Notes under the pieces: generated by a model
Seen by the model: the letters and a program-made list of their open reading frames with translations, nothing else
Told to the model about the DNA's origin: nothing
Databases searched by the model: none
Assembly: GCA_003223895.1 (NCBI GenBank)
Contig: QHXD01000004.1
Coordinates: 866 to 33,065 of the forward strand
Source: Acidobacteriota bacterium
Lineage (GTDB): Bacteria; Acidobacteriota; Terriglobia; 20CM-2-55-15
Direction of reading: 5' to 3'
DNA length: 32,200 bases
Made by a program: the position numbers and the translations under genes
Shown: piece by piece, positions 297 to 27,905 of the stretch
Numbering within the stretch: the first letter of the stretch is position 1
How the letters are laid out: the number at the start of each line of letters is the position of its first letter

Positions 297-2210
297 TTAC
301 CGTCCGGTGCGTCCCACAGAACCCGCAAGCTTGTACGGATATCCCGGTGGGCCGTTCTGATAGTACGCGCCGAGCGTTTCGATCTTATCCATATCGGGAT
401 ACAGCACTCCGATAGCGGGTGCGTTCACGCTTCCTCGTGGTGAGTACCAGATCGCCCCGTCTCTGGTGATCTGTATCTTTGGCGTGTCCGCCGGCTTCTG
501 CGGCTTCGGGTAGAGCGTAAAGGTTGCGTCTTTGGGATTGAACTTCCACAACGCCGCGGCGCTGCCGCCGACATCGGCGCTCCAGATGTTGCCATCAGGG
601 TCCTGAGCCACGTCGTACGGGCTGGCGTTCTGCCGCGGTACTGTCCACTCGGTGATCCTGCCGGTTGTTTGATCCAGCTTCGCCAGCTTGCCGGGACGCT
701 TTCCGGCGGCCCAGATGCCAAACCAGATATTGTTTTGAGCATCCACATTCAATCGTCGAACCTGCGCCGGATACGTCAGTGGCGCAAAGATCGTCCAACC
801 GTTGTTGTGAGTGTCGAACTTCGCAATATTCCCCGAATCCCAGAGAGCCATCCAAATGTTATCGTTTCTGTCTGGGATAACGCCGTACACGATGGCGTTC
901 GGCTGCGGAACGGTAAACACCGACACTTTCTTTGTCTCCCGGTCATATTTGCTGAGCGCTCCCCCCATGATCCAGCCGACATAGATGTTGCTCTTTGAAT
1001 CGAAGGCAATCGACTGCAGCCACTTGATGGGATTTCTGACGACGTTGTCCGGATCCATGGGAATCATTTGCTCGAACTTTTCGGTCTTCGGATTGAATTG
1101 GAGCAGACGCTTCACGTTCGATGGCTGCACGCCCGAATGTTCCGCGAGCCAGATCATGCCGGTCGGATCGATGTTGACTTCGTGGATGCCGTTCTTCGGA
1201 TCCGGCAGCAGGTAGTCTTTCTGTACTCCGGTACGCGGGTCCAGCTTCACCAGACGATGAGGATAGCCGCGATCGGTCAGCCACACATTGCCGTCTGCGT
1301 CGAAACGCACATCCTGGCCGGCGCGCCTGCCCACAAACCCGGCTTGCAGCTTGTTGTATTCCGGCGAATTCGTGCCCTGGCCCGGAGGATCCGGCGGCAG
1401 GTAATACTCGATGTACATGGCCTTGCCAAGCTTTGCCTCATCGAACGGCATTTCCTGATCGATCCGGACTGCCCGAGGTTTGGCATCCGGCCCGAAGTTC
1501 TTCACCATATACGCCAGCAAGTCTTCGCGGTCTTGCCGTGAGAACCTTAAGGCCGAGGCTCGATAGTTGAGGAGGCCCTCGGCGTACGAGGCTGCCGCAC
1601 GATCCCAGTTCGCCTTGCCCATCATGCGGTCTAGACGAGCAGTCCACACTCCGAGGTTTCCAGGCCTCCCGGGCAGAAAGTTTTCGCCATGGCAGATGAT
1701 GCAGGTCCTCTCGGCCACGTCCCGTCCGGGTCCTGGCGGATAGACCTCGTCGTAGCTCTGCTCGATGGTGACCGTCGAATTTGATTCGGTGTTTGTCTCG
1801 AGGGCGTTGACAATCGTGCGCGCCGACGCGCCGCTAATGGCGTGGAGCGACAGCTTCAGCTTCGGGTTTTCCCCGGCTTTCAACGTCAGCTTCTGAACGT
1901 CCGACTCCAGGCCTTTTGTGCTGGCATTGACTTCATAGTTTCCGGGAAACATGGTTACAGCCCGGAACTGGCCGCCGTTGGTGTACACCATGTAAAGGAT
2001 GTGCTTGTCGACGTTGCGGATGAAGACCTGCGCGGCCTTGACCGGCGCGGTCGCATCGACCGTTCCCGTAAGGCTCGCCGTCCCCGCAATTGCGGTCTGC
2101 GCCGGGGCTGGGCTCGCGGCAGCCCATCCTCCGAACACAACGTATGCGACGCCAAGACTGCCCATCAACGCGATGATCAGTAATGGCCTAACCATCTTCC
2201 AATTGCCCAT
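297..2210 (-). CDS. Secreted multidomain protein: signal/anchor, carboxypeptidase-regulatory-like beta-sandwich, mono-heme c-type cytochrome motif, C-terminal beta-propeller (Vgb-lyase/NHL-like repeats)
   Basis: 637-aa ORF; ATG 2210 is preceded by GGAGG with a 7-nt spacer. Hydrophobic N-terminus (LLIIALMGSLGVAYVVFGGWAAA). A single CxxCH motif (CIICHG). Repeated ...DGNVW/GMIW/NNIW/GNIW/GAIW... blades typical of 6-7 bladed propellers. Domain names are from memory of the families. Confidence 0.75.
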   Translation of the reverse strand: MGNWKMVRPLLIIALMGSLGVAYVVFGGWAAASPAPAQTAIAGTASLTGTVDATAPVKAAQVFIRNVDKHILYMVYTNGGQFRAVTMFPGNYEVNASTKGLESDVQKLTLKAGENPKLKLSLHAISGASARTIVNALETNTESNSTVTIEQSYDEVYPPGPGRDVAERTCIICHGENFLPGRPGNLGVWTARLDRMMGKANWDRAAASYAEGLLNYRASALRFSRQDREDLLAYMVKNFGPDAKPRAVRIDQEMPFDEAKLGKAMYIEYYLPPDPPGQGTNSPEYNKLQAGFVGRRAGQDVRFDADGNVWLTDRGYPHRLVKLDPRTGVQKDYLLPDPKNGIHEVNIDPTGMIWLAEHSGVQPSNVKRLLQFNPKTEKFEQMIPMDPDNVVRNPIKWLQSIAFDSKSNIYVGWIMGGALSKYDRETKKVSVFTVPQPNAIVYGVIPDRNDNIWMALWDSGNIAKFDTHNNGWTIFAPLTYPAQVRRLNVDAQNNIWFGIWAAGKRPGKLAKLDQTTGRITEWTVPRQNASPYDVAQDPDGNIWSADVGGSAAALWKFNPKDATFTLYPKPQKPADTPKIQITRDGAIWYSPRGSVNAPAIGVLYPDMDKIETLGAYYQNGPPGYPYKLAGSVGRTGR

Positions 2211-13809: not shown

Positions 13810-16172
13810 TGGACTTCTCCCTCGACGCCCTCGAGTATCACCGGCTGAAAGAATTGCTCGGCCGCTATGTGTCGACCGATGCGGGCCGCCTCGCGCTTGC
13901 CGGACTCTCGCCGATGCTCGACGAACAGAAGCTCGATGCGGAGCACGCCATTACGGCCGAAGCGATGGCGTACCTGCGAGAGCACCGGGTTCCGTTCAAC
14001 GACATCGCTCTGTTGTCCCAGGCACTGGAGAAGCTCTCGGTTGCAGGCTCCAGTCTGGAAATTGCCGAGATCGAAGCCATCCAATCGTTCCTTTCCCAGG
14101 TCGAAGGTCTTCGGCTTCGCTGGAAAGAGGAGCGTGAGAAGTTTCCGAAGCTCGCGCAGACCGGACAGCGGCTGCCCGATCTGCGGGACCTGGCAAAGCA
14201 CCTTGGCCGCGCCATCCACAATGGTGAAGTCGACGAGAAGTACAGTCCAGAACTCGCGCGTATCCGGCGCGCGCTCGCGGCGTCGCGCTCGCGTTTGACC
14301 GAGAAGCTCGAATCCATCGTCCGGAGTCCGGCATACGCCTCTCAATTGCAGGAACAGCTCGTGACCATTCGAAACGGCCGGTTCGTGATTCCTGTGCGCA
14401 GCGACCAAAAGCGCGGCGTTGAAGGCATCATTCACGGCAGTTCATCAAGCGGCGCGACGGTGTTCATGGAGCCTCTCGCGGTGCTGGAGATGAACAACGA
14501 ACTGGTCCGGTTGCAGGAAGAAGAGCGATATGAGATCGCACGCATTCTTGCTGAGCTGACGGATCTGATTCAGGCAAGCGCCGGCCCGATCGAGTTTGCG
14601 CGCTCGCTGGCCGCTTACCTGGAGCTGGTTTTTGCGAAGGCGCGGTTTGGCCGTGATTTCGATTGTGTTCGCCCGTCCTTTTCGCGAGGACCGCTGCTCA
14701 GTTTGATCAAAGCAAGGCATCCGCTGCTCGAAGACAATTTGAAACGCGAGGGTGCGTCCGTGTCGCCCGTGTCGCTGGACATGGATTCAACTCGAACCGT
14801 TCTGGTCATCAGCGGCCCCAATGCCGGCGGAAAAACAGTGGTGCTCAAGACGGTCGGACTATTGGCCCTGATGGCGCAGTCCGGCATTCCGGTGCCGTCG
14901 GAAGAGGCGGCCCTGCCGATTTTCGATCGAGTGCTTGCCGACATCGGGGATCAGCAGTCCATCACGAATCACCTCAGCACTTTTTCGGCCCACGTTCTGG
15001 CGATCAAGTCGATGGTCGAATCGGCGACTGCCCGGTCGCTGATTCTCATGGATGAGATCGGCAGCAGCACCGAACCCGGGGAGGGGGCCGCACTCGCTCG
15101 TGCCGTCCTCGAACAATTCCGGGAAATCGGCGCTTTGACGATCGCGACAACCCATTACAACCGGCTGAAGCTCTACGCGGAAACGACGGCGGGCGTGGCG
15201 AACGCCGCAATGGAATTCAATGAAATCACTTTGGAACCGACCTATCGCCTGATTCACGGGCTGGCCGGGGCATCGAGCGGTTTGAAAATTGCAGAACGAC
15301 TGCAGTTGCCGGCGAAGGTACTGCAAAAGGCGACCGGATTCCTGGACACGGCTGATGTAGAAGCGGGGCATTATGTCGAGGAACTGAGGCGCAGGATTGC
15401 GGACCTGGAGGGCGAGAAGACGAGATTAGAAAAGGAACGGAAGGAATTCGAGGACTGGAAGCAAAAGGAGTTGGACCAGGTCACCGCGCAGCACAAAGAG
15501 GAGATTGCGAGGGTAGAGAAAAAGCTGGAGCGGATCGTGAAGGAGATGTCGGAGCGGGCGTCGCGGGAACTGGAGTCCGTGCGTGACGACTCGGTCAAGA
15601 AGTACCAGAAGAAACTGGCAAGTGTTAAGGAGCAGGCGACGTCGGAAATCAAAAGGGAAAGAGAAAAGATCCAACCGGCGTCGAAAACTGAGCCTTCGCC
15701 CGGCGGGCTTCCGGGGCGCATCCAAGTCCCGCTGAGAGAGGGACAGGCCGTACGAGTTGCTTCCCTTGGAGTAACTGGGATAGTTACATCATTAAAAGGC
15801 GACGGTGCTGAAGTGCTGGTGGGGAACATCAAACTACGTAGGCCTGTCGCCGATCTCGAGGTGATCGAGAACCCGCCGATCCGATTGCCCCAGGGAGTTC
15901 ACCTGACTGTTGCATCCAAGCAGCTGGAGAAGAACGAACTCAACCTTCTGGGGCGTAGAGTCGACGAAGCCGTCGATATGACGGACAAATTCCTGGACGA
16001 TGCCTTCCTGGCACAGATGAACCAGATTCGAATCGTCCATGGAACCGGAACTGGCGCCCTGCGGCAGGCGATAACCGAATTGCTGAGCGGCCACCCGCAC
16101 GTGGCGCGTTTCGAGGCTGCGCCGCAGAACCAGGGCGGCCGCGGTGTCACCGTGGTCACGTTGAGGGAATAA
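13809..16172 (+). CDS. mutS2: Endonuclease MutS2 (MutS domain, Walker A, coiled coil, C-terminal Smr domain)
   Basis: 787 aa. ...ARHPLL......PV.L........VISGPNAGGKTV.LKT.GL..LMAQSG..VP...... ...DE.G.GT.P.EGAAL; a long E/K-rich coiled coil; C-terminal Smr (.L.LLG.RV.EA....DKFLD.A.L.....IRIVHG.GTGALR.A...LL..HP.V). The ATG overlaps the larB stop (TAATG). Confidence 0.92.
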   Translation: MDFSLDALEYHRLKELLGRYVSTDAGRLALAGLSPMLDEQKLDAEHAITAEAMAYLREHRVPFNDIALLSQALEKLSVAGSSLEIAEIEAIQSFLSQVEGLRLRWKEEREKFPKLAQTGQRLPDLRDLAKHLGRAIHNGEVDEKYSPELARIRRALAASRSRLTEKLESIVRSPAYASQLQEQLVTIRNGRFVIPVRSDQKRGVEGIIHGSSSSGATVFMEPLAVLEMNNELVRLQEEERYEIARILAELTDLIQASAGPIEFARSLAAYLELVFAKARFGRDFDCVRPSFSRGPLLSLIKARHPLLEDNLKREGASVSPVSLDMDSTRTVLVISGPNAGGKTVVLKTVGLLALMAQSGIPVPSEEAALPIFDRVLADIGDQQSITNHLSTFSAHVLAIKSMVESATARSLILMDEIGSSTEPGEGAALARAVLEQFREIGALTIATTHYNRLKLYAETTAGVANAAMEFNEITLEPTYRLIHGLAGASSGLKIAERLQLPAKVLQKATGFLDTADVEAGHYVEELRRRIADLEGEKTRLEKERKEFEDWKQKELDQVTAQHKEEIARVEKKLERIVKEMSERASRELESVRDDSVKKYQKKLASVKEQATSEIKREREKIQPASKTEPSPGGLPGRIQVPLREGQAVRVASLGVTGIVTSLKGDGAEVLVGNIKLRRPVADLEVIENPPIRLPQGVHLTVASKQLEKNELNLLGRRVDEAVDMTDKFLDDAFLAQMNQIRIVHGTGTGALRQAITELLSGHPHVARFEAAPQNQGGRGVTVVTLRE

Positions 16173-16256
16173 TTCGGGGACAGACGTATAAATCACCTAA
16201 TTACGTCCAAAGGTTCCTGATACGTAATTAGGTGATTTATACGTCTGTCCCCGAAT
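16172..16256. repeat. Palindromic hairpin element, copy A (35-bp perfect arms, 15-nt loop), truncated on its right by the IS
   Basis: ATTCGGGGACAGACGTATAAATCACCTAATTACGT (16172-16206) is the exact reverse complement of 16222-16256. It begins on the last base of the mutS2 TAA. It is 33/34 identical to the arm at 26051-26084. Confidence 0.9.
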
Positions 16257-16273
16257 CCCCGATTAGTCGATAA
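16257..16273. repeat. IS left terminal inverted repeat
   Basis: CCCCGATTAGTCGATAA; reverse-complement match to 18005-18021 (one mismatch, at position 2). Confidence 0.7.
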
Positions 16274-16380
16274 CAAAGGGATGGAAGAAAAAGTATTGGC
16301 GATTGGCGCAGGCAGAGTCGCTGTTTTGTTGTGAAGTGGGGAAACCAGAGGGACCACCCTTGGGGTGATGCGCAGCGAAG

Positions 16381-17820
16381 ATGCGCGGCATGATGAAAGC
16401 GAGACGCCGATCCCCGACAATGAATCCTCTGCCGTTCCAATTAGACCCCGAGCCAGCAACGGAGACATTGACCAGCTATGGGGGAGTGCCGCTGGTAGTG
16501 CGGGCCTTCCGATCACTGGGTTTGCCCGAAGCGGTGGCTCAGCATGTGCGAATCAAGCAACGAGACAGAGGCTATGACGAAGCGACGTTTGTGGAGAGCT
16601 TCGTGATTCTGAATGCGGTGGGAGGCGAATGCCTGGAAGACTTCGAGCAACTGCGAGCCGACGCGGGATTGGCCGAGTTGGTCGGCCATGGGATGCCGTC
16701 GCCGGAGGCGGCGCGGAATTTTCTGTATGCGTTTCATGAAGACGCGAAAATCGAAGAGGCTCAATTGCGGTTGAAAGGGGACGAGAAAGCCTATATCCCC
16801 GACGAGACGATTCCGTTGCAGGGATTGGGAGCGGTGAACCGGACAGCCATTGCGGAAGTGGGAAACCGTTGTCCGGACCAGAAGATCGCGACGGTCGATC
16901 AGGACGCCACGATCATCGAAAGCCGGAAGCAGGAGGCCAAGGCGACCTACGAGGGAGAACGAGGCTATCAGCCGATGCTGGCGGTGTGGGCCGAGACGGG
17001 ATTGATCTTGTCGGATGAGTTTCGAGACGGCAATGTGCCGGCGATGATGAGCCCGCTGAGTGGCGCGAAGGCGGCCTTTGCAGCGCTTCCCAAGACGGTG
17101 GAAACGTTCTATTACCGGGGCGATTCGGCCAGCCACGAACACGAACTGATGGACTGGTTGCGCAATCCATTGCGCGAGGGCGGTCCAGCCGGTTTGATCG
17201 GATTCGCCATATCGGCGCGGATGAGCGCGGAGTTGGCCAAAGCCATCGACGAGGTTAAGGAAGACCAATGGCAGATGGTGAAGGAGGAAACAGACGCGAT
17301 CCGATCCTGCGCGGAAGTCGCGTTTGTCCCTGGCGAACGCAGTGAAAAGAAGGATAGTCAACCGCTGCGTTACATCGCTATTCGGATCGAGAAAAAACAG
17401 GGACATCTCTACGACGACGGTTCCCGAATCCGCCATTTTGCCGTCGTGACCAACATTGAAGGATGGACGGCCCCGAAACTGATCCAGTGGCATCGCGAAA
17501 AAGCCGGCACAGTCGAGATGGTGCATGACATCCTGAAGAATGAACTGGCAGCCGGAGTTTTGCCGTGCGGTCGCTTCGGGGCCAATGCCGCATGGTTGCG
17601 GCTGGCCGTGATTACCCATAACGTACTGACCGCTCTGAAGCGGCTGGCGTTACCGGCAGAGCATCTGTCGGCACGGCCCAAGCGCCTGCGTTTTCTGTAT
17701 CTCAATCTGGCGGGCCGGGTGTTGCATCACGCTCGCAGCCTGCATCTGCGGTTGGCCGCGCTGCTAGCGCGCATAGGAGACATGGTCCAAGCGTTTGAAG
17801 CCTTGCCTCTCCGCGTCTAG
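16381..17820 (+). CDS. IS1380-family DDE transposase
   Basis: 479-aa ORF. It is collinear, from memory, with ISEcp1-type transposases: LTSYGGVPLV (cf. LTSNAGL), VDQDATIIES....A...Y.G.RGYQP (D ... GY.P), FYYRGDSASH (second D), and REKAGTVEMVHDILKNELA.G.LP...FGANAAWLRL.VITHNV (E/K ... AN.A ... NL block). The start could instead be ATG 16420. Confidence 0.85.
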   Translation: MRGMMKARRRSPTMNPLPFQLDPEPATETLTSYGGVPLVVRAFRSLGLPEAVAQHVRIKQRDRGYDEATFVESFVILNAVGGECLEDFEQLRADAGLAELVGHGMPSPEAARNFLYAFHEDAKIEEAQLRLKGDEKAYIPDETIPLQGLGAVNRTAIAEVGNRCPDQKIATVDQDATIIESRKQEAKATYEGERGYQPMLAVWAETGLILSDEFRDGNVPAMMSPLSGAKAAFAALPKTVETFYYRGDSASHEHELMDWLRNPLREGGPAGLIGFAISARMSAELAKAIDEVKEDQWQMVKEETDAIRSCAEVAFVPGERSEKKDSQPLRYIAIRIEKKQGHLYDDGSRIRHFAVVTNIEGWTAPKLIQWHREKAGTVEMVHDILKNELAAGVLPCGRFGANAAWLRLAVITHNVLTALKRLALPAEHLSARPKRLRFLYLNLAGRVLHHARSLHLRLAALLARIGDMVQAFEALPLRV

Positions 17821-18004
17821 CTCCAGCCCGAACGCCAGACAACTCAATTTCGGTGCTCGCTCACGGCGCAGCGTTGTCTGCGAAGACCTAAAAATTCCGT
17901 TCATCGCCCTCGCTGACCACATCACACTACTCTCATCTGAATCTTGGCTGCCCGATCTCCAAAAAATCCGGGCACATTCTCGCCCGTTTAGCCTTACGGC
18001 TGCC

Positions 18005-18021
18005 TTATCGACTAATCGGAG
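18005..18021. repeat. IS right terminal inverted repeat
   Basis: TTATCGACTAATCGGAG, the reverse complement of the left IR apart from one mismatch; followed by CCGAAT. Confidence 0.7.
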
Positions 18022-18036
18022 CCGAATTATCCCCAC

Positions 18037-18066
18037 TTGACTTTTTCGTACAAAAACGTATAGATT
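18037..18066 (+). promoter_or_regulatory. Candidate sigma70-type promoter for dnaG-rpoD
   Basis: TTGACT (18037-18042), then 16 nt, then TATAGA (18059-18064), or TAGATT at 18061-18066 with an 18-nt spacer. It lies 37-44 nt upstream of the dnaG ATG and 15 nt from the IS end. Pattern only. Confidence 0.3.
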
Positions 18067-18102
18067 ACTTGATTTCGCTTTTTCGGTTCCCCCCGGCAGC
18101 TA

Positions 18103-21724: not shown

Positions 21725-21798
21725 GGGCCCATAGCTCAGTTGGTTAGAGCTCCCGGCTCATAACCGGGCAGTCGTAGGTTCAAGTCCTACTGGGCCCA
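21725..21798 (+). tRNA. tRNA with CAT anticodon (elongator tRNA-Met, or tRNA-Ile2 if C34 is lysidinylated); not an initiator
   Basis: The 74-nt cloverleaf was folded by hand: acceptor GGGCCCA/TGGGCCC, D arm GCTC-AGTTGGTTA-GAGC, anticodon arm CCCGG-CTCATAA-CCGGG, variable loop CAGTC, T arm GTAGG-TTCAAGT-CCTAC, discriminator A. CCA is not encoded. The G1:C72 pair and the absence of the three consecutive G:C pairs in the anticodon stem exclude the initiator. Confidence 0.9.
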
Positions 21799-21819: not shown

Positions 21820-22554
21820 ATGAATTCCGATCTCAAGCAGCTTATTCGCCTTCAGTCGATTGATCTCGCCATTCAGGAACTCCGAGCCAGAATCGATAAA
21901 TTTCCGGGTATTTCAAAGGCCCTGGATGAAAAACTGCGCTCTGCCCAGGCCGGCCTTGAAACCGCGAAGGAGAAGGTAAAAAGCAATCAGGCCAACCGGA
22001 AGAAGTTCGAGGGCGAAATCAACAACACGGAATCCAAAATCTCGAAGTACCGCGATCAGATGATGGCCGTTAAAACCAACGACGAGTACCGGGCGCTTCA
22101 GCACGAGATCGAACACGCGCAGAAGGGAATTCGCAAGACCGAAGACGACCTCCTCAACTTGATGATGGAAGCGGAGAGCCTGCAGTCCGAAATCAAAACC
22201 GCCGAGGTCTGCCTGAAGGAGGACCAGCAGAGGGTCAACGAAGAACGCAAACTGCTCGAAGAGGAAAACAAACGCGATCTCACGGGCCTGGAGTCTTACG
22301 TAAAGGAACGTCAGGAGATCGCGACTTCGATATCATCCGACGACCTGCTTCCGCGCTATGAGCGCGTCCGCAAACACAGGGGCGGAATCGCTGTTGCCGC
22401 CGCCCGAAATGAAGTCTGCGAAATCTGCAAGGTTCGGATTCGGCCTCAGGTCTTCCAGGAAATCCTCAAGAATGATCAGATCATCGCCTGCGATGCCTGC
22501 CAGCGCATTCTCTACGATCCCAATAATCTCGATCACCCATTCGAAGTGGCATGA
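21820..22554 (+). CDS. COG1579/DUF164 coiled-coil protein with C-terminal C4 zinc ribbon
   Basis: 244 aa. N-terminal L..L..LQ.ID..I..L pattern, long coiled coil, and C-terminal ...GG.AVA......C..C...I.PQ.......ND.II.C..C.RILY. The stop overlaps the next ATG (ATGA). Confidence 0.8.
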   Translation: MNSDLKQLIRLQSIDLAIQELRARIDKFPGISKALDEKLRSAQAGLETAKEKVKSNQANRKKFEGEINNTESKISKYRDQMMAVKTNDEYRALQHEIEHAQKGIRKTEDDLLNLMMEAESLQSEIKTAEVCLKEDQQRVNEERKLLEEENKRDLTGLESYVKERQEIATSISSDDLLPRYERVRKHRGGIAVAAARNEVCEICKVRIRPQVFQEILKNDQIIACDACQRILYDPNNLDHPFEVA

Positions 22555-22955
22555 ATTTGGAAGCCTACATCGATGGGGGCTCGCGGGGTAATCCCGGCGA
22601 AGGCGGCATTGGTGTCTATTTCCCTGGTGTCGTGCGCATTGCCGAATACCTGGGCACCTGCACCAACAACTTCGCCGAGTATTCCGCGCTTCTCAGCGCT
22701 CTTCGCTTCGCCGTGTACTCGCGCTGTGACGAACTTCAAGTCTCTTCGGATTCGGAACTCGTCGTTAAACAAATCAAGGGCGAATACCAGGTAAGGAATG
22801 AAGGCATCCGACCGCTCCATGATTCCGCCCAGCGATGGATCGCCCTCATCCCCCGCTTTTCAATCCGGCACGTTCGCCGTGAAAGCAACAAGGAAGCGGA
22901 CAAGCTCGCCAATCTGGCAATGGATACCCGCCGCAACACGGTGAAGTGGGAGTAA
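22551..22955 (+). CDS. rnhA: Ribonuclease HI family protein (short, RVT_3/archaeal-type RNase HI)
   Basis: 134 aa. Y.DGGSRGNPG.GGIG ... NN.AEY.AL..AL..A ...... SDSELVVKQI.GEY.V.N ... H..RE.N..AD.LAN.A gives the D-E-D-D catalytic pattern. The COG1579-RNase H pairing is a known conserved neighbourhood, for example in Actinobacteria. Confidence 0.8.
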   Translation: MNLEAYIDGGSRGNPGEGGIGVYFPGVVRIAEYLGTCTNNFAEYSALLSALRFAVYSRCDELQVSSDSELVVKQIKGEYQVRNEGIRPLHDSAQRWIALIPRFSIRHVRRESNKEADKLANLAMDTRRNTVKWE

Positions 22956-22963
22956 GGCGAGAC

Positions 22964-23127
22964 GAAAGGCGGATCTGAAATCTGCAACCGCCGATCGCCA
23001 ATTTGTAATAAGAAGTTCACAATTTTGAATTAGTTAGCCCTTATCGATTTTCGAGAACCGCTGAGCAAATTTGGAATCTTTGTTACAAATTGGCGATCGG
23101 CGGTTGCAGATGTCAGATCCGCCTTTC
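22964..23127. repeat. 164-bp inverted-repeat (MITE-like) element filling the rnhA / dinB-family convergent gap
   Basis: The 45-nt arms 22964-23008 (GAAAGGCGGATCTGAAATCTGCAACCGCCGATCGCCAATTTGTAA) and 23083-23127 are reverse complements at 44/45. They surround a 74-nt AT-rich spacer. The element starts 9 nt after the rnhA stop and ends 3 nt before the dinB-family stop. Confidence 0.85.
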
Positions 23128-23129
23128 TT

Positions 23130-23612
23130 TCAATCCGACCTTATCAGCCGTTTCAAAAGCTGGATCTGGCCCGCGTGGTAAAGGTCGTGGGCGGCGACGC
23201 CCGTGATGAGAGCGAGATTGCTGACTTTGGTGCCCGTGGGTTTTTGAGGTAGAGTTTTGGGATTTAGGTTCGCAATGGCCGACCGGAGCGAGCCGTGGAT
23301 GTCGTCGAGCAGCGCGACATCCTGCTTCCAGGCCGACTGTGTCGCCTCCTGAGGGCGGGAAAACCAGTTGGAACCCTTTAACGCGAACGAACCGGCGGGT
23401 GCTCCCACCAACCGCCGATGCACAACGTATTTCCAGTACGCCGCGTGGACGACAAGCTCCCAAATGTTATGACGACCGGATTGCGGGCGCCGGGCAGCCT
23501 CATCGGCGGTCACATTGCGGAGGGACCCGCGGAGGTTTGTGCCATGCCATGACTTATGGTTGTAGGCCTGGTCGACGACGTCCAGCAGGACTTTGATCTC
23601 GGGCCCGGGCAT
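23130..23612 (-). CDS. DinB-family (DinB_2, four-helix-bundle metal-binding) protein
   Basis: 160 aa. ...SWHG.NL.G.L..V....A..RP..G.H.IWELV.H...W ... and C-terminal ...G.A.HD.YH.GQI..L.R, typical of the DinB/YfiT-like superfamily. Confidence 0.75.
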   Translation of the reverse strand: MPGPEIKVLLDVVDQAYNHKSWHGTNLRGSLRNVTADEAARRPQSGRHNIWELVVHAAYWKYVVHRRLVGAPAGSFALKGSNWFSRPQEATQSAWKQDVALLDDIHGSLRSAIANLNPKTLPQKPTGTKVSNLALITGVAAHDLYHAGQIQLLKRLIRSD

Positions 23613-26030: not shown

Positions 26031-26156
26031 AGCACGTGGCCGCGGGCTTTAATTCGGGGACAGACGCATAAATCACCTAATTACCTTAAGTCACCATTGA
26101 TTGTAATTAGGTGATTTATGCGTCTGTCCCCGAATTAAAGCCCGCGGCCACGTGCT
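26031..26156. repeat. 126-bp palindrome: hairpin element copy B nested in a locus-specific GC-rich stem (54-bp perfect arms, 18-nt loop)
   Basis: 26031-26084 (AGCACGTGGCCGCGGGCTTTAATTCGGGGACAGACGCATAAATCACCTAATTAC) is the exact reverse complement of 26103-26156. The inner 34 nt of each arm equal copy A apart from one compensated position. The element lies between leuS (stop 26019) and mscL (the stop codon shares nt 26156). Confidence 0.92.
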
Positions 26157-26612: not shown

Positions 26613-27905
26613 TCATTCCACTCCAGCGAGCGACAATAAGATGCCCAGTGCAACATTGATTCCTTTCACGCTCGCCGGTTTTTCCACATCGATCCATTCG
26701 TCCAATGCATGAGCCCGGCCACCCCGGCCACCCGAATCGATAGTGATGGCAGGAATCCCCATACTGATGGGAATGTTCGAATCGGTGCTGCTCATGCTGT
26801 AGTACGGAGTCATACCAAAGCCTTTGATGACGGCCGTGGCGGTCTGAACAATTGGAGCGCTAATCGGTATTTCTCCGGAAGGGCGGTCACCGATCAGCTT
26901 CATGTCCATCTCGATCCTGCCTTGACCGGTAGATCTTGCCCTGTTCTCCTCGTCCGCTGCTTCGTGCATTAACCCGAGGAGCGTTTCTGCCGCCTTATTC
27001 AATTCCTCCCGCGATTCCGACCGTATGTCGACTTCCATCCATGCCTCATAAGGAATTGAGTTGACCGAGGTTCCACCGCCGACAACGCCGACGTTGAAAG
27101 TCGTTCGAGGCCGCACCGGGACCTGCATCTTCGAGAACTTATTAATGGCGTTACCCAGAGCGAATGCAGGATTCACAATTCCGAATGCGCCGTAGCTGTG
27201 TCCGCCGGGCCCTCTAAAAGTCACCTTGTATCTTTTGCTTCCGAGGGCGCCATTGCTGACCTCATTGCCGGCACCGGTACCGTCCATGGAGATGAACATT
27301 TTGATTCTGTCTTTATACGGGCCCTTCTGAAACAGGTACTTCATCCCGCGCAGGTCGCCCGGGCCTTCTTCGCCAACGTCGCCGACAAACAGGATGTCGC
27401 TTGCAGTCCGGATCTTCGCGGCGTCCATCGCGCGGATCATCGCAAGCAGGACGGCGAGAGCGCGCGAGTCATCTCCGATTCCCGCCGCTGACAGCCTCGT
27501 GCCCGTGCGTTTCACTTTGACATTGGTTCCTTCCGGAAAAACCGTGTCCAGATGGGCGGCGATGGCGATGAGTGGGGCTCCGCGAGTGCCTTTCCGGATG
27601 CCCATCACGTTGCCCTCCGCGTCCATTTCGACATTCACCAGGCCGGCTTGCCGCAGCATTTCCAGATATGCCGTGCCGCGCTTCTCTTCTTTGAACGGAG
27701 GCGCTTCAATCTCGGTGATCTGGATAGTCTCGCTAATGATGCGATCGTGATCCTTGTCGATGAAATCCTCGGCGGATTGGAATTTCGGATTATTCAGCAC
27801 ACGCTGGAGATCGGGGGCCTGAGCCCGGACAAAACCAGAGAACAGAAGCCAGGCGGCGATGGACCCGGCAATGCAGGCGCCGGCTTTAGCCGGCGCGGTC
27901 TTCAT
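26613..27905 (-). CDS. Exported M20-family metallopeptidase (peptidase T/M20A-like)
   Basis: About 430 aa. ...IEAPPF.E..R..Y......GL..V..D..GNV.G...G......I...AHLDTVFP ... AGIGDD..A......... and VGEEG.GDL.G ... indicate a dinuclear metal-site pattern (H, D, E-E). The signal-like N-terminus is [33 protein letters not shown] 27905 is preferred (GGAGG 11 nt upstream) over ATG 27926; either start overlaps the pyrC 3' end. Confidence 0.8.
27875..27896. repeat. GC-rich TTTA-loop hairpin spanning the pyrC stop codon and the first codons of the M20 gene; 21-nt exact repeat of 2553-2573
   Basis: Stem GCGCCGGC (27877-27884) / GCCGGCGC (27889-27896) with a TTTA loop. The pyrC TAA (27888-27886 on the minus strand) lies in the loop. 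AGGCGCCGGCTTTAGCCGGCG is identical to 2553-2573. Confidence 0.7.

Follow-up and report, generated by a model that had tools for sequence, protein, structure and literature searches.

Two perfect hairpins of a soil Acidobacteriota genome as likely mobile doublets of the terminal inverted repeat of a TIRYT-type transposase

We analysed a stretch of 32,200 nucleotides from an Acidobacteriota bacterium (assembly GCA_003223895.1, contig QHXD01000004.1, positions 866 to 33,065; hereafter the window), for which a preliminary description made from the sequence alone had pointed to two long hairpins, copy A at the end of mutS2 and copy B between leuS and mscL. Both hairpins are very probably copies of a non-autonomous mobile element, namely head-to-head doublets of the ~35-nt terminal inverted repeat (TIR) of a TIRYT-type transposase gene (HUH/Y1, IS200 superfamily, similar to the RAYTs, the transposases associated with repetitive extragenic palindromic sequences, or REPs) hosted by a lineage of soil Acidobacteriota. 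They belong to a family whose arms are physically linked to a transposase gene and co-vary with its orthologues, which is dispersed at 79 or more intergenic loci with no general target-site duplication and is polymorphic in presence at the site of copy A (site A). The TIRtron/TIRYT class is known, and what is new is the present family, REPIN-like and of a little-studied kind.

Two perfectly paired hairpins in the window

The arm TTCGGGGACAGACG[T/C]ATAAATCACCTAATTAC matched the window exactly four times, with no match expected (100 shuffles), and these matches form two inverted pairs (16173-16204 on the forward strand with 16224-16255 on the reverse strand, and 26053-26084 forward with 26103-26134 reverse). 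Copy A, a T-type TIR doublet (16170-16256), comprises a left arm including T-AATTC (16170-16206), a 15-nt loop (16207-16221), and a right arm (16222-16256), 16172-16206 and 16222-16256 being perfect inverted repeats. Copy B, a C-type doublet (26050-26137) with the conserved core T-AATTC...GAATT-A, has an 18-nt loop (26085-26102). The perfectly paired arms are ~35 nt long in both hairpins and differ by a single pair, T16187:A16241 in copy A and C26067:G26120 in copy B. All this agrees with the preliminary description, which nevertheless understated the extent of copy B: its perfect palindrome spans 26031-26156, with 54-nt arms that reach into locus-specific flanks and the mscL stop codon. The left outer flank (26031-26049, AGCACGTGGCCGCGGGCTT) resembles the stem of a GTAG-type REP, and the right one (26138-26156) is its exact reverse complement, with the last base within the mscL stop codon. 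NCBIfam confirmed the identities of MutS2, LeuS, and MscL. The overlap of copy A with mutS2 also stood, amounting to 2-3 bases, with the stop codon TAA (16170-16172) supplied by the hairpin's own TAA; the arm as noted earlier starts on the second base of this codon and not, as then stated, on the last one.

Both hairpins folded far better than shuffled sequences, either as RNA (z = -12.5 to -19.8) or as DNA (z = -11.8 and -22.4), whereas the DNA folding of single arms was no better than that of shuffles (z = -0.58 and 0.18). Because single arms do not fold on themselves and the arm start GGGGACAG fits the motif GGGGWSAS of TIRYT-associated repeats, we interpret the hairpins as TIR doublets of a TIRYT system. 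Rfam placed no family at either hairpin, in line with the earlier view that no familiar riboregulator fits them, and the tRNA at 21725-21798 was the only feature in the window to reach the gathering score. Similarly, a consensus terminator scan called no terminator-like site at copy A or copy B; neither has a U-tract, as already noted, and the tails that follow them (GTGCTTAACTCG and CCCCGATTAG) do not show the combination of GC-rich stem and U-tract.

A family dispersed in soil Acidobacteriota

A 21-base arm pattern, searched in a set of species-representative genomes, was found in 6 stretches, all of them in metagenome-assembled genomes (MAGs) of Acidobacteriota (Ca. Sulfopaludibacter sp. 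SbA3 and a Terriglobia bacterium), and an exact 20-base arm pattern was found in at least 120 stretches of soil metagenomes. The closest named relatives of the MutS2 of the window likewise come from Acidobacteria/Terriglobia MAGs. The DNA fetched around these matches (loci designated by L and a number) contained 102 complete paired hairpins and 34 solo arms, several of the latter cut by contig ends, such that doublets outnumber singlets. The search for further copies proposed in the preliminary description thus yielded at least 79 distinct loci, and the resulting alignment comprised 80 sequences. Its core reads T-AATTCGGGGACAGACG(T/C)ATAAATCACC(T/C)AA(T/A)T(A/T)(G/C), followed by a loop of mostly 16-20 nt and the reverse complement; the arm start was invariant across the 79 loci (the arm is also given as GGGGACAGACG). 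The loops had been regarded as unrelated, which is not wholly the case: there is a weak consensus across the family, although loops have diverged to roughly 60-70% identity while the arms stayed identical.

Crude open reading frame (ORF) calling placed 71 of 77 copies in intergenic regions, many within 5-30 nt of a gene end, and assigned them to tandem (36), convergent (17), and divergent (18) gene contexts, as for random intergenic placement. A dedicated terminator role is therefore unsupported, although copies may influence neighbouring transcripts. Gene orientation gave no support to terminator targeting either, though a few flanks carry A/T tracts (L034, L040).

Some variants were seen within the family. 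L089 and L109, which are one locus in two samples, carry the hairpin loop in opposite orientations; the spacer appears to flip between strains, as would be expected from recombination between inverted arms. Solo arms of a CCC variant with G instead of A as outer base (L108, positions 431 and 5755; L066, position 3845) lie ~90 nt upstream of near-identical small ORFs starting with MARKLCVV. The two such units of L108 are inverted and 5.3 kb apart, and their solo arm, like that of L066, may be part of a duplicated 5' region.

The family has practical consequences for annotation: strong intergenic hairpins of soil Acidobacteriota can be labelled as transposase-linked repeats instead of unknown RNAs or terminators. 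The repeats also help to explain where MAG contigs break, several contigs here ending within the element.

The arms bracket a Y1 transposase gene

In L105, two inverted arms (750-783 and 1563-1599) located 840 nt apart bracket an ORF of 241 amino acids (772-1497, reverse strand) that begins with MGRLPRVAVPGCPHHILQRGN and matches the Pfam family Y1_Tnp with 39.1 bits (gathering score 23). Eight homologues share without variation the motifs NHVH, WQGRF, and RYVERNPV, and thereby, by residue, N59-H60-V61-H62, W99, and Y119/E121/N123/P124, which supply the HUH motif, the catalytic Tyr, and the signatures typical of RAYTs (WQ, Y..NP). A single-sequence search of the PDB with this transposase gave no match and a profile was needed, the best match of which was the Escherichia coli TnpA-REP (4ER8, E = 0.0026). 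A protein collection contained 2200 homologues at E<=1e-20. The transposase has a conserved C-terminal extension of ~100 amino acids, which showed no match to Pfam helix-turn-helix (HTH) or Bac_DnaA_C domains at E<0.01. Y1 transposase genes were the only genes found bounded by the arms, in accordance with the earlier suggestion of a REP- or MITE-like mobile hairpin (MITEs being miniature inverted-repeat transposable elements) served by a RAYT or IS200/IS605-type enzyme.

The TIRs co-vary with the transposase orthologues. The gene in L132 (protein P0004, 71% identical to that of L105) is surrounded by the same TIRs; P0005 (L130, 68% identical) has the TIR AATTCGGTGTCAGACTACTAAATCACC at both ends and P0014 (L131, 64% identical) the TIR AATTCCTCGTCAGAGGTGTAAATGACC, these two types being also written GGTGTCAGACTACTAAATCAC and CCTCGTCAGAGGTGTAAATGAC. 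At each orthologue locus, both TIR ends are altered together. The gene order is conserved in L105, L130, L131, and two further places, where a ThiF/rhodanese gene and a 140-amino acid gene precede the transposase and a radical SAM/SPASM gene follows it. Between L105 and L130, the neighbouring proteins are 94-95% identical, the transposases only 68%, and the TIRs differ at ~8 positions; therefore, either divergence is much more rapid in the transposase and its TIR than around them or the allele has been replaced in place. A remnant of the other TIR type (CCCCGAATTG) persists at the right end of L130, a hint that the allele was exchanged at this locus. We link this pattern to the proposal on flanks made below, with the reading that transposase and TIR would switch specificity quickly.

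To our knowledge, nobody has demonstrated how TIRYTs move. In the scheme that we favour for the present family, one transposase gene located elsewhere in the genome would mobilise the doublets in trans, presumably as single-stranded hairpins, by cleavage and joining of a single strand in the style of IS200/IS605 at the foot of the hairpin, around T/AATTC.

Both arms change together

The T:A/C:G pair that distinguishes the two window copies had been taken for a private compensatory event. Instead, it is a marker of two large subfamilies, with 52 loci of the T:A type, 26 of the C:G type, and one mismatch among the 79, and the genome of the window carries both types. In 75 of 80 copies the two arms agreed. 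T and C are each present on all three haplotypes of the inner stem; for this, the arms must either have changed on both sides repeatedly or have been homogenised. Pairing involved 90.5% of the alignment cells, as compared with 78.9% in shuffles, none of 500 of which reached the observed value. At the covarying core pairs we found no one-sided (G:U-type) states, which indicates symmetry at the DNA level rather than selection on an RNA fold. The previous conclusion that selection acts on the hairpin rather than on the primary sequence did not hold, as 28 of the 50 pairs tested are invariant across the 79 loci; sequence is thus constrained as well as pairing. Two forces would maintain the strict Watson-Crick symmetry of the arms: recognition of both ends and hairpin-templated copying, by template switching at the palindrome.

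Histories of the two insertion sites

A contig encoding a MutS2 99% identical to that of the window (L147) contains neither hairpin A nor the insertion sequence (IS) that adjoins it in the window. At site A, this contig has a 29-nt GTAG-type REP between GAGGGAGTAA and TCCCCACTTGAC, exactly at the point where the window has the hairpin. Judging from this comparison, copy A is a recent insertion. A second candidate orthologue of site A, L004, was discarded as it had no MutS2 match.

The preliminary description had missed that the right end of copy A is interrupted by a directly adjoining IS1380-family element (16257-18021, forward strand). Its transposase ORF (16381-17820) matches NCBIfam NF033539 with 237 bits (cut-off 180) and Pfam DDE_Tnp_1_4. 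The element has 17-nt imperfect inverted repeats (CCCCGATTAGTCGATAA and CTCCGATTAGTCGATAA) and is flanked by a 6-bp direct repeat, CCGAAT (16251-16256 and 18022-18027). The displaced end of copy A with its flank lies at 18022-18034, where TA (18028-18029) after the second CCGAAT completes GAATTA and TCCCC pairs imperfectly with GGGAA on the left side. Since the sequence ...CCCCGAATTATCCCC is recovered once the IS and one CCGAAT are taken out, the IS was inserted into the right end of hairpin A after the hairpin was in place. Contig L129 starts exactly at CCGAATTATCCCC. We considered the IS1380 enzyme as the partner transposase of the hairpins and rejected it, given that this IS carries inverted repeats and a direct repeat of its own and is absent elsewhere, including L147.

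Copy B was present in all 10 independent contigs with the same MscL (from ENA, NCBI, and JGI assemblies), in which the flanking genes are 97.8% identical to those of the window. They represent two haplotypes, separated by a pair of substitutions in the loop and by one compensated pair of the locus-specific outer stem (G>A/C>T, GTGGCC...GGCCAC versus GTAGCC...GGCTAC); two contigs also have one uncompensated core change. More distant relatives had other sequences at this junction. L143 (MscL 91% identical) has no element and two stop codons 10 nt apart around a small REP-type hairpin, and L144 (84% identity) has an unrelated palindrome with 40-nt arms. The latter (L144, 1922-2018) takes up the mscL/leuS junction, encloses both stop codons, and belongs to another palindromic family rich in CACAGA/CACAAAG, also seen in L102 (2402-2462), with arms of ~40 nt in L144 and 28 nt in L102.

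Locus-specific flanks are symmetrical

Outside AATTC...GAATT the flanks are specific to each locus, yet the two flanks of each copy are reverse complements of one another. Of 86 de-duplicated loci, 80 show a perfect extension of the pairing by 1 nt or more, 57 by 5 nt or more, and 29 by 10 nt or more; in the 79-locus alignment, the median extension is 7 nt. Watson-Crick pairing of the flanks decreases from 95% at position -1 to 71% at -6 and ~50% at -15 (25% expected by chance), part of which is accounted for by weak conservation of an outer motif, G.GGT; beyond the first mismatch, complementarity falls to 34%. Outside the palindromic flanks we found no general target-site duplication. A TA/TAA target duplication was discarded, because roughly one locus in four has A, C, or G at position -1. 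A clear direct repeat, of 10 bp, was seen for one copy alone, that of L052 (8396-8514), with CCAGGAAGTG on both sides of GTAGTGTCCT-element-AGGACACAAC, possibly through a different insertion route or a local duplication. The 49-nt palindromic flank of L040 was set aside as a possible assembly fold-back.

Several copies lie in REPs. L041 sits in a REP with the consensus AACGCGGGCT-AA-AGCCCGCGACTAC (as in most of 47 element-free core matches) and reads AACGCGGGCTAAAGCC[element]GGCTTTAGCCCGCGACTAC, where the 10 extra nucleotides are an inverted copy of the left flank. In window copy B, the same REP-type stem is accompanied by TTT on its left side and AAA on its right side. L033 has the appearance of a GTAG REPIN in which the inner 39 nt were replaced by the element, and L112 and L039 keep one REP half together with an exact inverted copy of it. 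In addition, CTAGCAGCCCGTGG occurs outside the core at 15 arms and never without the element, as if this subfamily had captured a flank that now travels with it. These paralogous comparisons argue against plain insertion into pre-existing palindromes.

A tentative explanation, which we put forward as possible but rather improbable, is that the hairpin makes its own surroundings symmetrical by fold-back or template-switch copying resolved by homology. At insertion or during later replication, synthesis would fold back at the foot of the hairpin, copy one flank as its reverse complement, and resume on the original template as soon as homology or microhomology is encountered; the hairpin-templated copying invoked above for the arms would be the same process. 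It would explain the perfect locus-specific palindromic flanks of 0-25 nt, the REP hairpins and REPINs that are symmetrised or have lost their inner half (L041, L033, L112, and window copy B), the captured 14-nt outer palindrome at 15 or more loci, and the fact that the arms always change together. If real, such symmetrising would bear on how REPIN-like doublets arise and grow, and would answer the open question of how REPINs re-establish a symmetrical doublet after single-strand transposition.

Other symmetrical repeats were noticed as well. Long perfect palindromes with arms of up to 48 nt, found in L123 (5000-5107), in L018 (4941-5002), and in the flanks of the copy in L047 (1627-1712), form a family sharing an outer part (AGCCRCGAATTACGC.RATTACGC) and having inner parts that are unique yet palindromic; in L047, a TIR doublet occupies the centre of one of them. 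An abundant classical REPIN, ACTGTAGCGGCGCTCTATGAGCGCCGG - ~23-nt spacer - CCGGCGGTCATAGACCGCCGCTACAGT, was found in L123 (1534-1623), L085 (4374-4450), L062 (3509-3583), and many other places. Its two REPs differ by changes compensated within each REP, and the TIR doublet of L042 lies in the spacer of a member of this family.

Weighing the alternatives

Several observations temper the interpretation of the hairpins as TIR doublets moved by a TIRYT-type transposase. All 79 loci were ascertained by the exact 20-base arm pattern, which therefore inflates the apparent conservation of at least one arm per locus. The window contains no Y1 gene within its 32 kb, and the exact TIR surrounds the gene at two loci only (L105 and L132). 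The best NCBIfam match of the L105 protein, REP_Tyr_transpos (NF047646), reached 51.6 bits, below the cut-off of 80. We obtained neither a transposition intermediate nor an excision scar, and no orthologous empty site that was clean: L147 holds another repeat at site A and L143 is too diverged for a comparison at base level at site B. Finally, copy B was fixed in the 10 contigs examined, leaving current activity unsupported.

The rivals nevertheless fare worse. A conventional MITE, that is, an internally deleted derivative of a DDE-type IS moved as double-stranded DNA and duplicating a palindromic TA or AATT target, would have the observed TIR-spacer-TIR layout of ~86 nt, and AATT or TA does occur at both ends of nearly every copy; furthermore, copy A adjoins an IS1380-family transposase gene. 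However, the inverted repeats of that IS are unrelated to the arms and its 6-bp direct repeat is distinct, and L147 and the other 78 loci lack the IS. Direct repeats around the hairpins do not exceed the trivial ones arising from self-complementary flanks or the control level, and 13 of the 79 loci have A...T instead of T...A beside AATTC, so that the TA duplication fails. With a Y1 transposase as the only gene found between arms, we regard a MITE origin as very improbable. An assembly artefact (fold-back mis-joins) or chance similarity is still more remote, to the point of being negligible, and has already been refuted for both window copies. The palindromic flank of L040 does run to the end of a short contig, much as a de Bruijn fold-back error would, but shuffles give an expectation of zero matches, such structures are also found well within long contigs, between genes, and independent ENA, NCBI, and JGI assemblies of the same locus show them.

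A more serious competitor, though still an unlikely one, is an element selected by the host for its structure (a bidirectional terminator without U-tract, a stabiliser of mRNA 3' ends, or a cruciform or protein-binding site), with mobility being incidental or extinct. The almost exclusively intergenic location close to gene ends, the fixation of copy B among strains diverged by ~2% with a compensated change in its outer stem, the conservation of arms in the face of diverged loops, and the different palindromes at the mscL/leuS junction in each of three lineages would all fit such a role. Against it, the hairpins lack a U-tract and a terminator call, and their gene contexts are those of random placement, about a quarter of the copies lying between divergent genes. 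G:U intermediates are missing at the covarying core pairs, which argues against selection at the RNA level, and the terminator or 3'-stabiliser role proposed earlier is accordingly unsupported. What is conserved is exactly the TIR of the transposase, and site A is polymorphic between strains that are 99% identical. For the study of TIRYT systems, the family provides 79 or more loci, diverged alleles of the transposase at a syntenic locus, and a site at which strains that are 99% identical differ in the presence of the element.

Other palindromic features of the window

Two further sequences of the window were evaluated as family members and rejected. A large hairpin at 22964-23127, with 61-nt arms (87% complementary) and a 42-nt spacer, lies between the ORFs 22551-22955 and 23130-23612 and had no match in any fetched locus. 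A putative third, degenerate copy at 18042-18076 (66% identity) is a stretch that is kept upstream of dnaG in L147 and L148. This region (18037-18076) contains a promoter-like TTGACT-18-TAGATT, and its likeness to the TIR core (ACGTATAGATTAC versus ACGTATAAATCAC) is probably a coincidence, because it is conserved in both L147 and L148, which do not have the element.

The window also carries REPs of the GTAG type. A palindrome with 28-nt arms at 237-294 (AAAAGTGGGCTCGTAGCGAACGCGGGCT..AGCCCGCGTTCGCTACGAGCCCATTTTT), preceded by an A-tract and followed by a T-tract, has as its centre the core of this family (AACGCGGGCTAAAGCCCGCGACTAC), a core with 47 occurrences among the fetched loci. The palindrome resembles a bidirectional terminator that has a REP as its basis. 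Two GTAG-headed copies, (T)GTAGGCGCCGGCTTTAGCCGGCG and TGCAGGCGCCGGCTTTAGCCGGCG, occur at 2551-2573 and 27872-27895, and a related REP is the one found at site A in L147.

Comparison with known systems

Bacterial MITEs (Correia/NEMIS, ERIC, RUP, Nezha) resemble the present element in being small, bounded by TIRs, intergenic, non-coding, and able to form a strong hairpin. However, they are tied to DDE transposases and regular target duplications, neither of which holds here. With the IS200/IS605 elements (IS608, ISDra2) the family shares the HUH/Y1 core, the absence of target-site duplication, and a role for DNA hairpins. The ends of IS200/IS605 elements are two different small subterminal hairpins, and insertion occurs 3' of a specific tetra- or pentanucleotide, whereas the two ends of the present element have one and the same sequence and form pairs between them.

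The similarity with the REPIN/RAYT system is closer. In both cases, two inverted repeats and a variable spacer make one long extragenic hairpin, and the repeat lies on either side of the transposase gene. REPINs are reported to show frequent compensatory changes across their hairpin, and single-strand transposition has been proposed for them (Bertels & Rainey 2011, PMC3116915). Unlike REPs, which are short imperfect palindromes headed by GTAG (or CGTC), the arms described here have neither an internal palindrome nor a GTAG head, the protein of 241 amino acids scores below the RAYT cut-off of NCBIfam, and classical GTAG REPs and REPINs form separate families in the same genomes.

The best counterpart is the class defined by Di Nocera et al. 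(2013), who named Y1 transposases with plain inverted repeats 'TIRYTs' and their loci 'TIRtrons', described TIRs with the motif GGGGWSAS (PMC3733652; see also PMC6006769) dispersed as singles and dimers, and singled out an acidobacterial TIRYT group (PMC3733652). The preliminary description had considered that the arms might be the terminal repeats of an element already described; this is true of the class, published in 2013 (PMC3733652), and of the present family we found no description. Specifically, its TIR sequence and its Ca. Sulfopaludibacter-like host were not found in PMC3733652 or PMC6006769, its copy number is above that of the 'moderately abundant' families reported there, and neither paper describes palindromic flanks or a rapid divergence of TIRYT and TIR at a syntenic locus. 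Most TIRYTs belong to TnpA-Y1 subclass 2.1 (Quentin et al. 2018, PMC6006769), whose C-terminal HTH domain was undetected here by Pfam at E<0.01. The shared traits are a Y1 (HUH) gene lying between plain inverted repeats instead of REP hairpins, a 3' TIR that overlaps the end of the gene, an arm start that fits the class motif, and a TIR dispersed as single and dimeric copies. The present system probably belongs to subclass 2.1.

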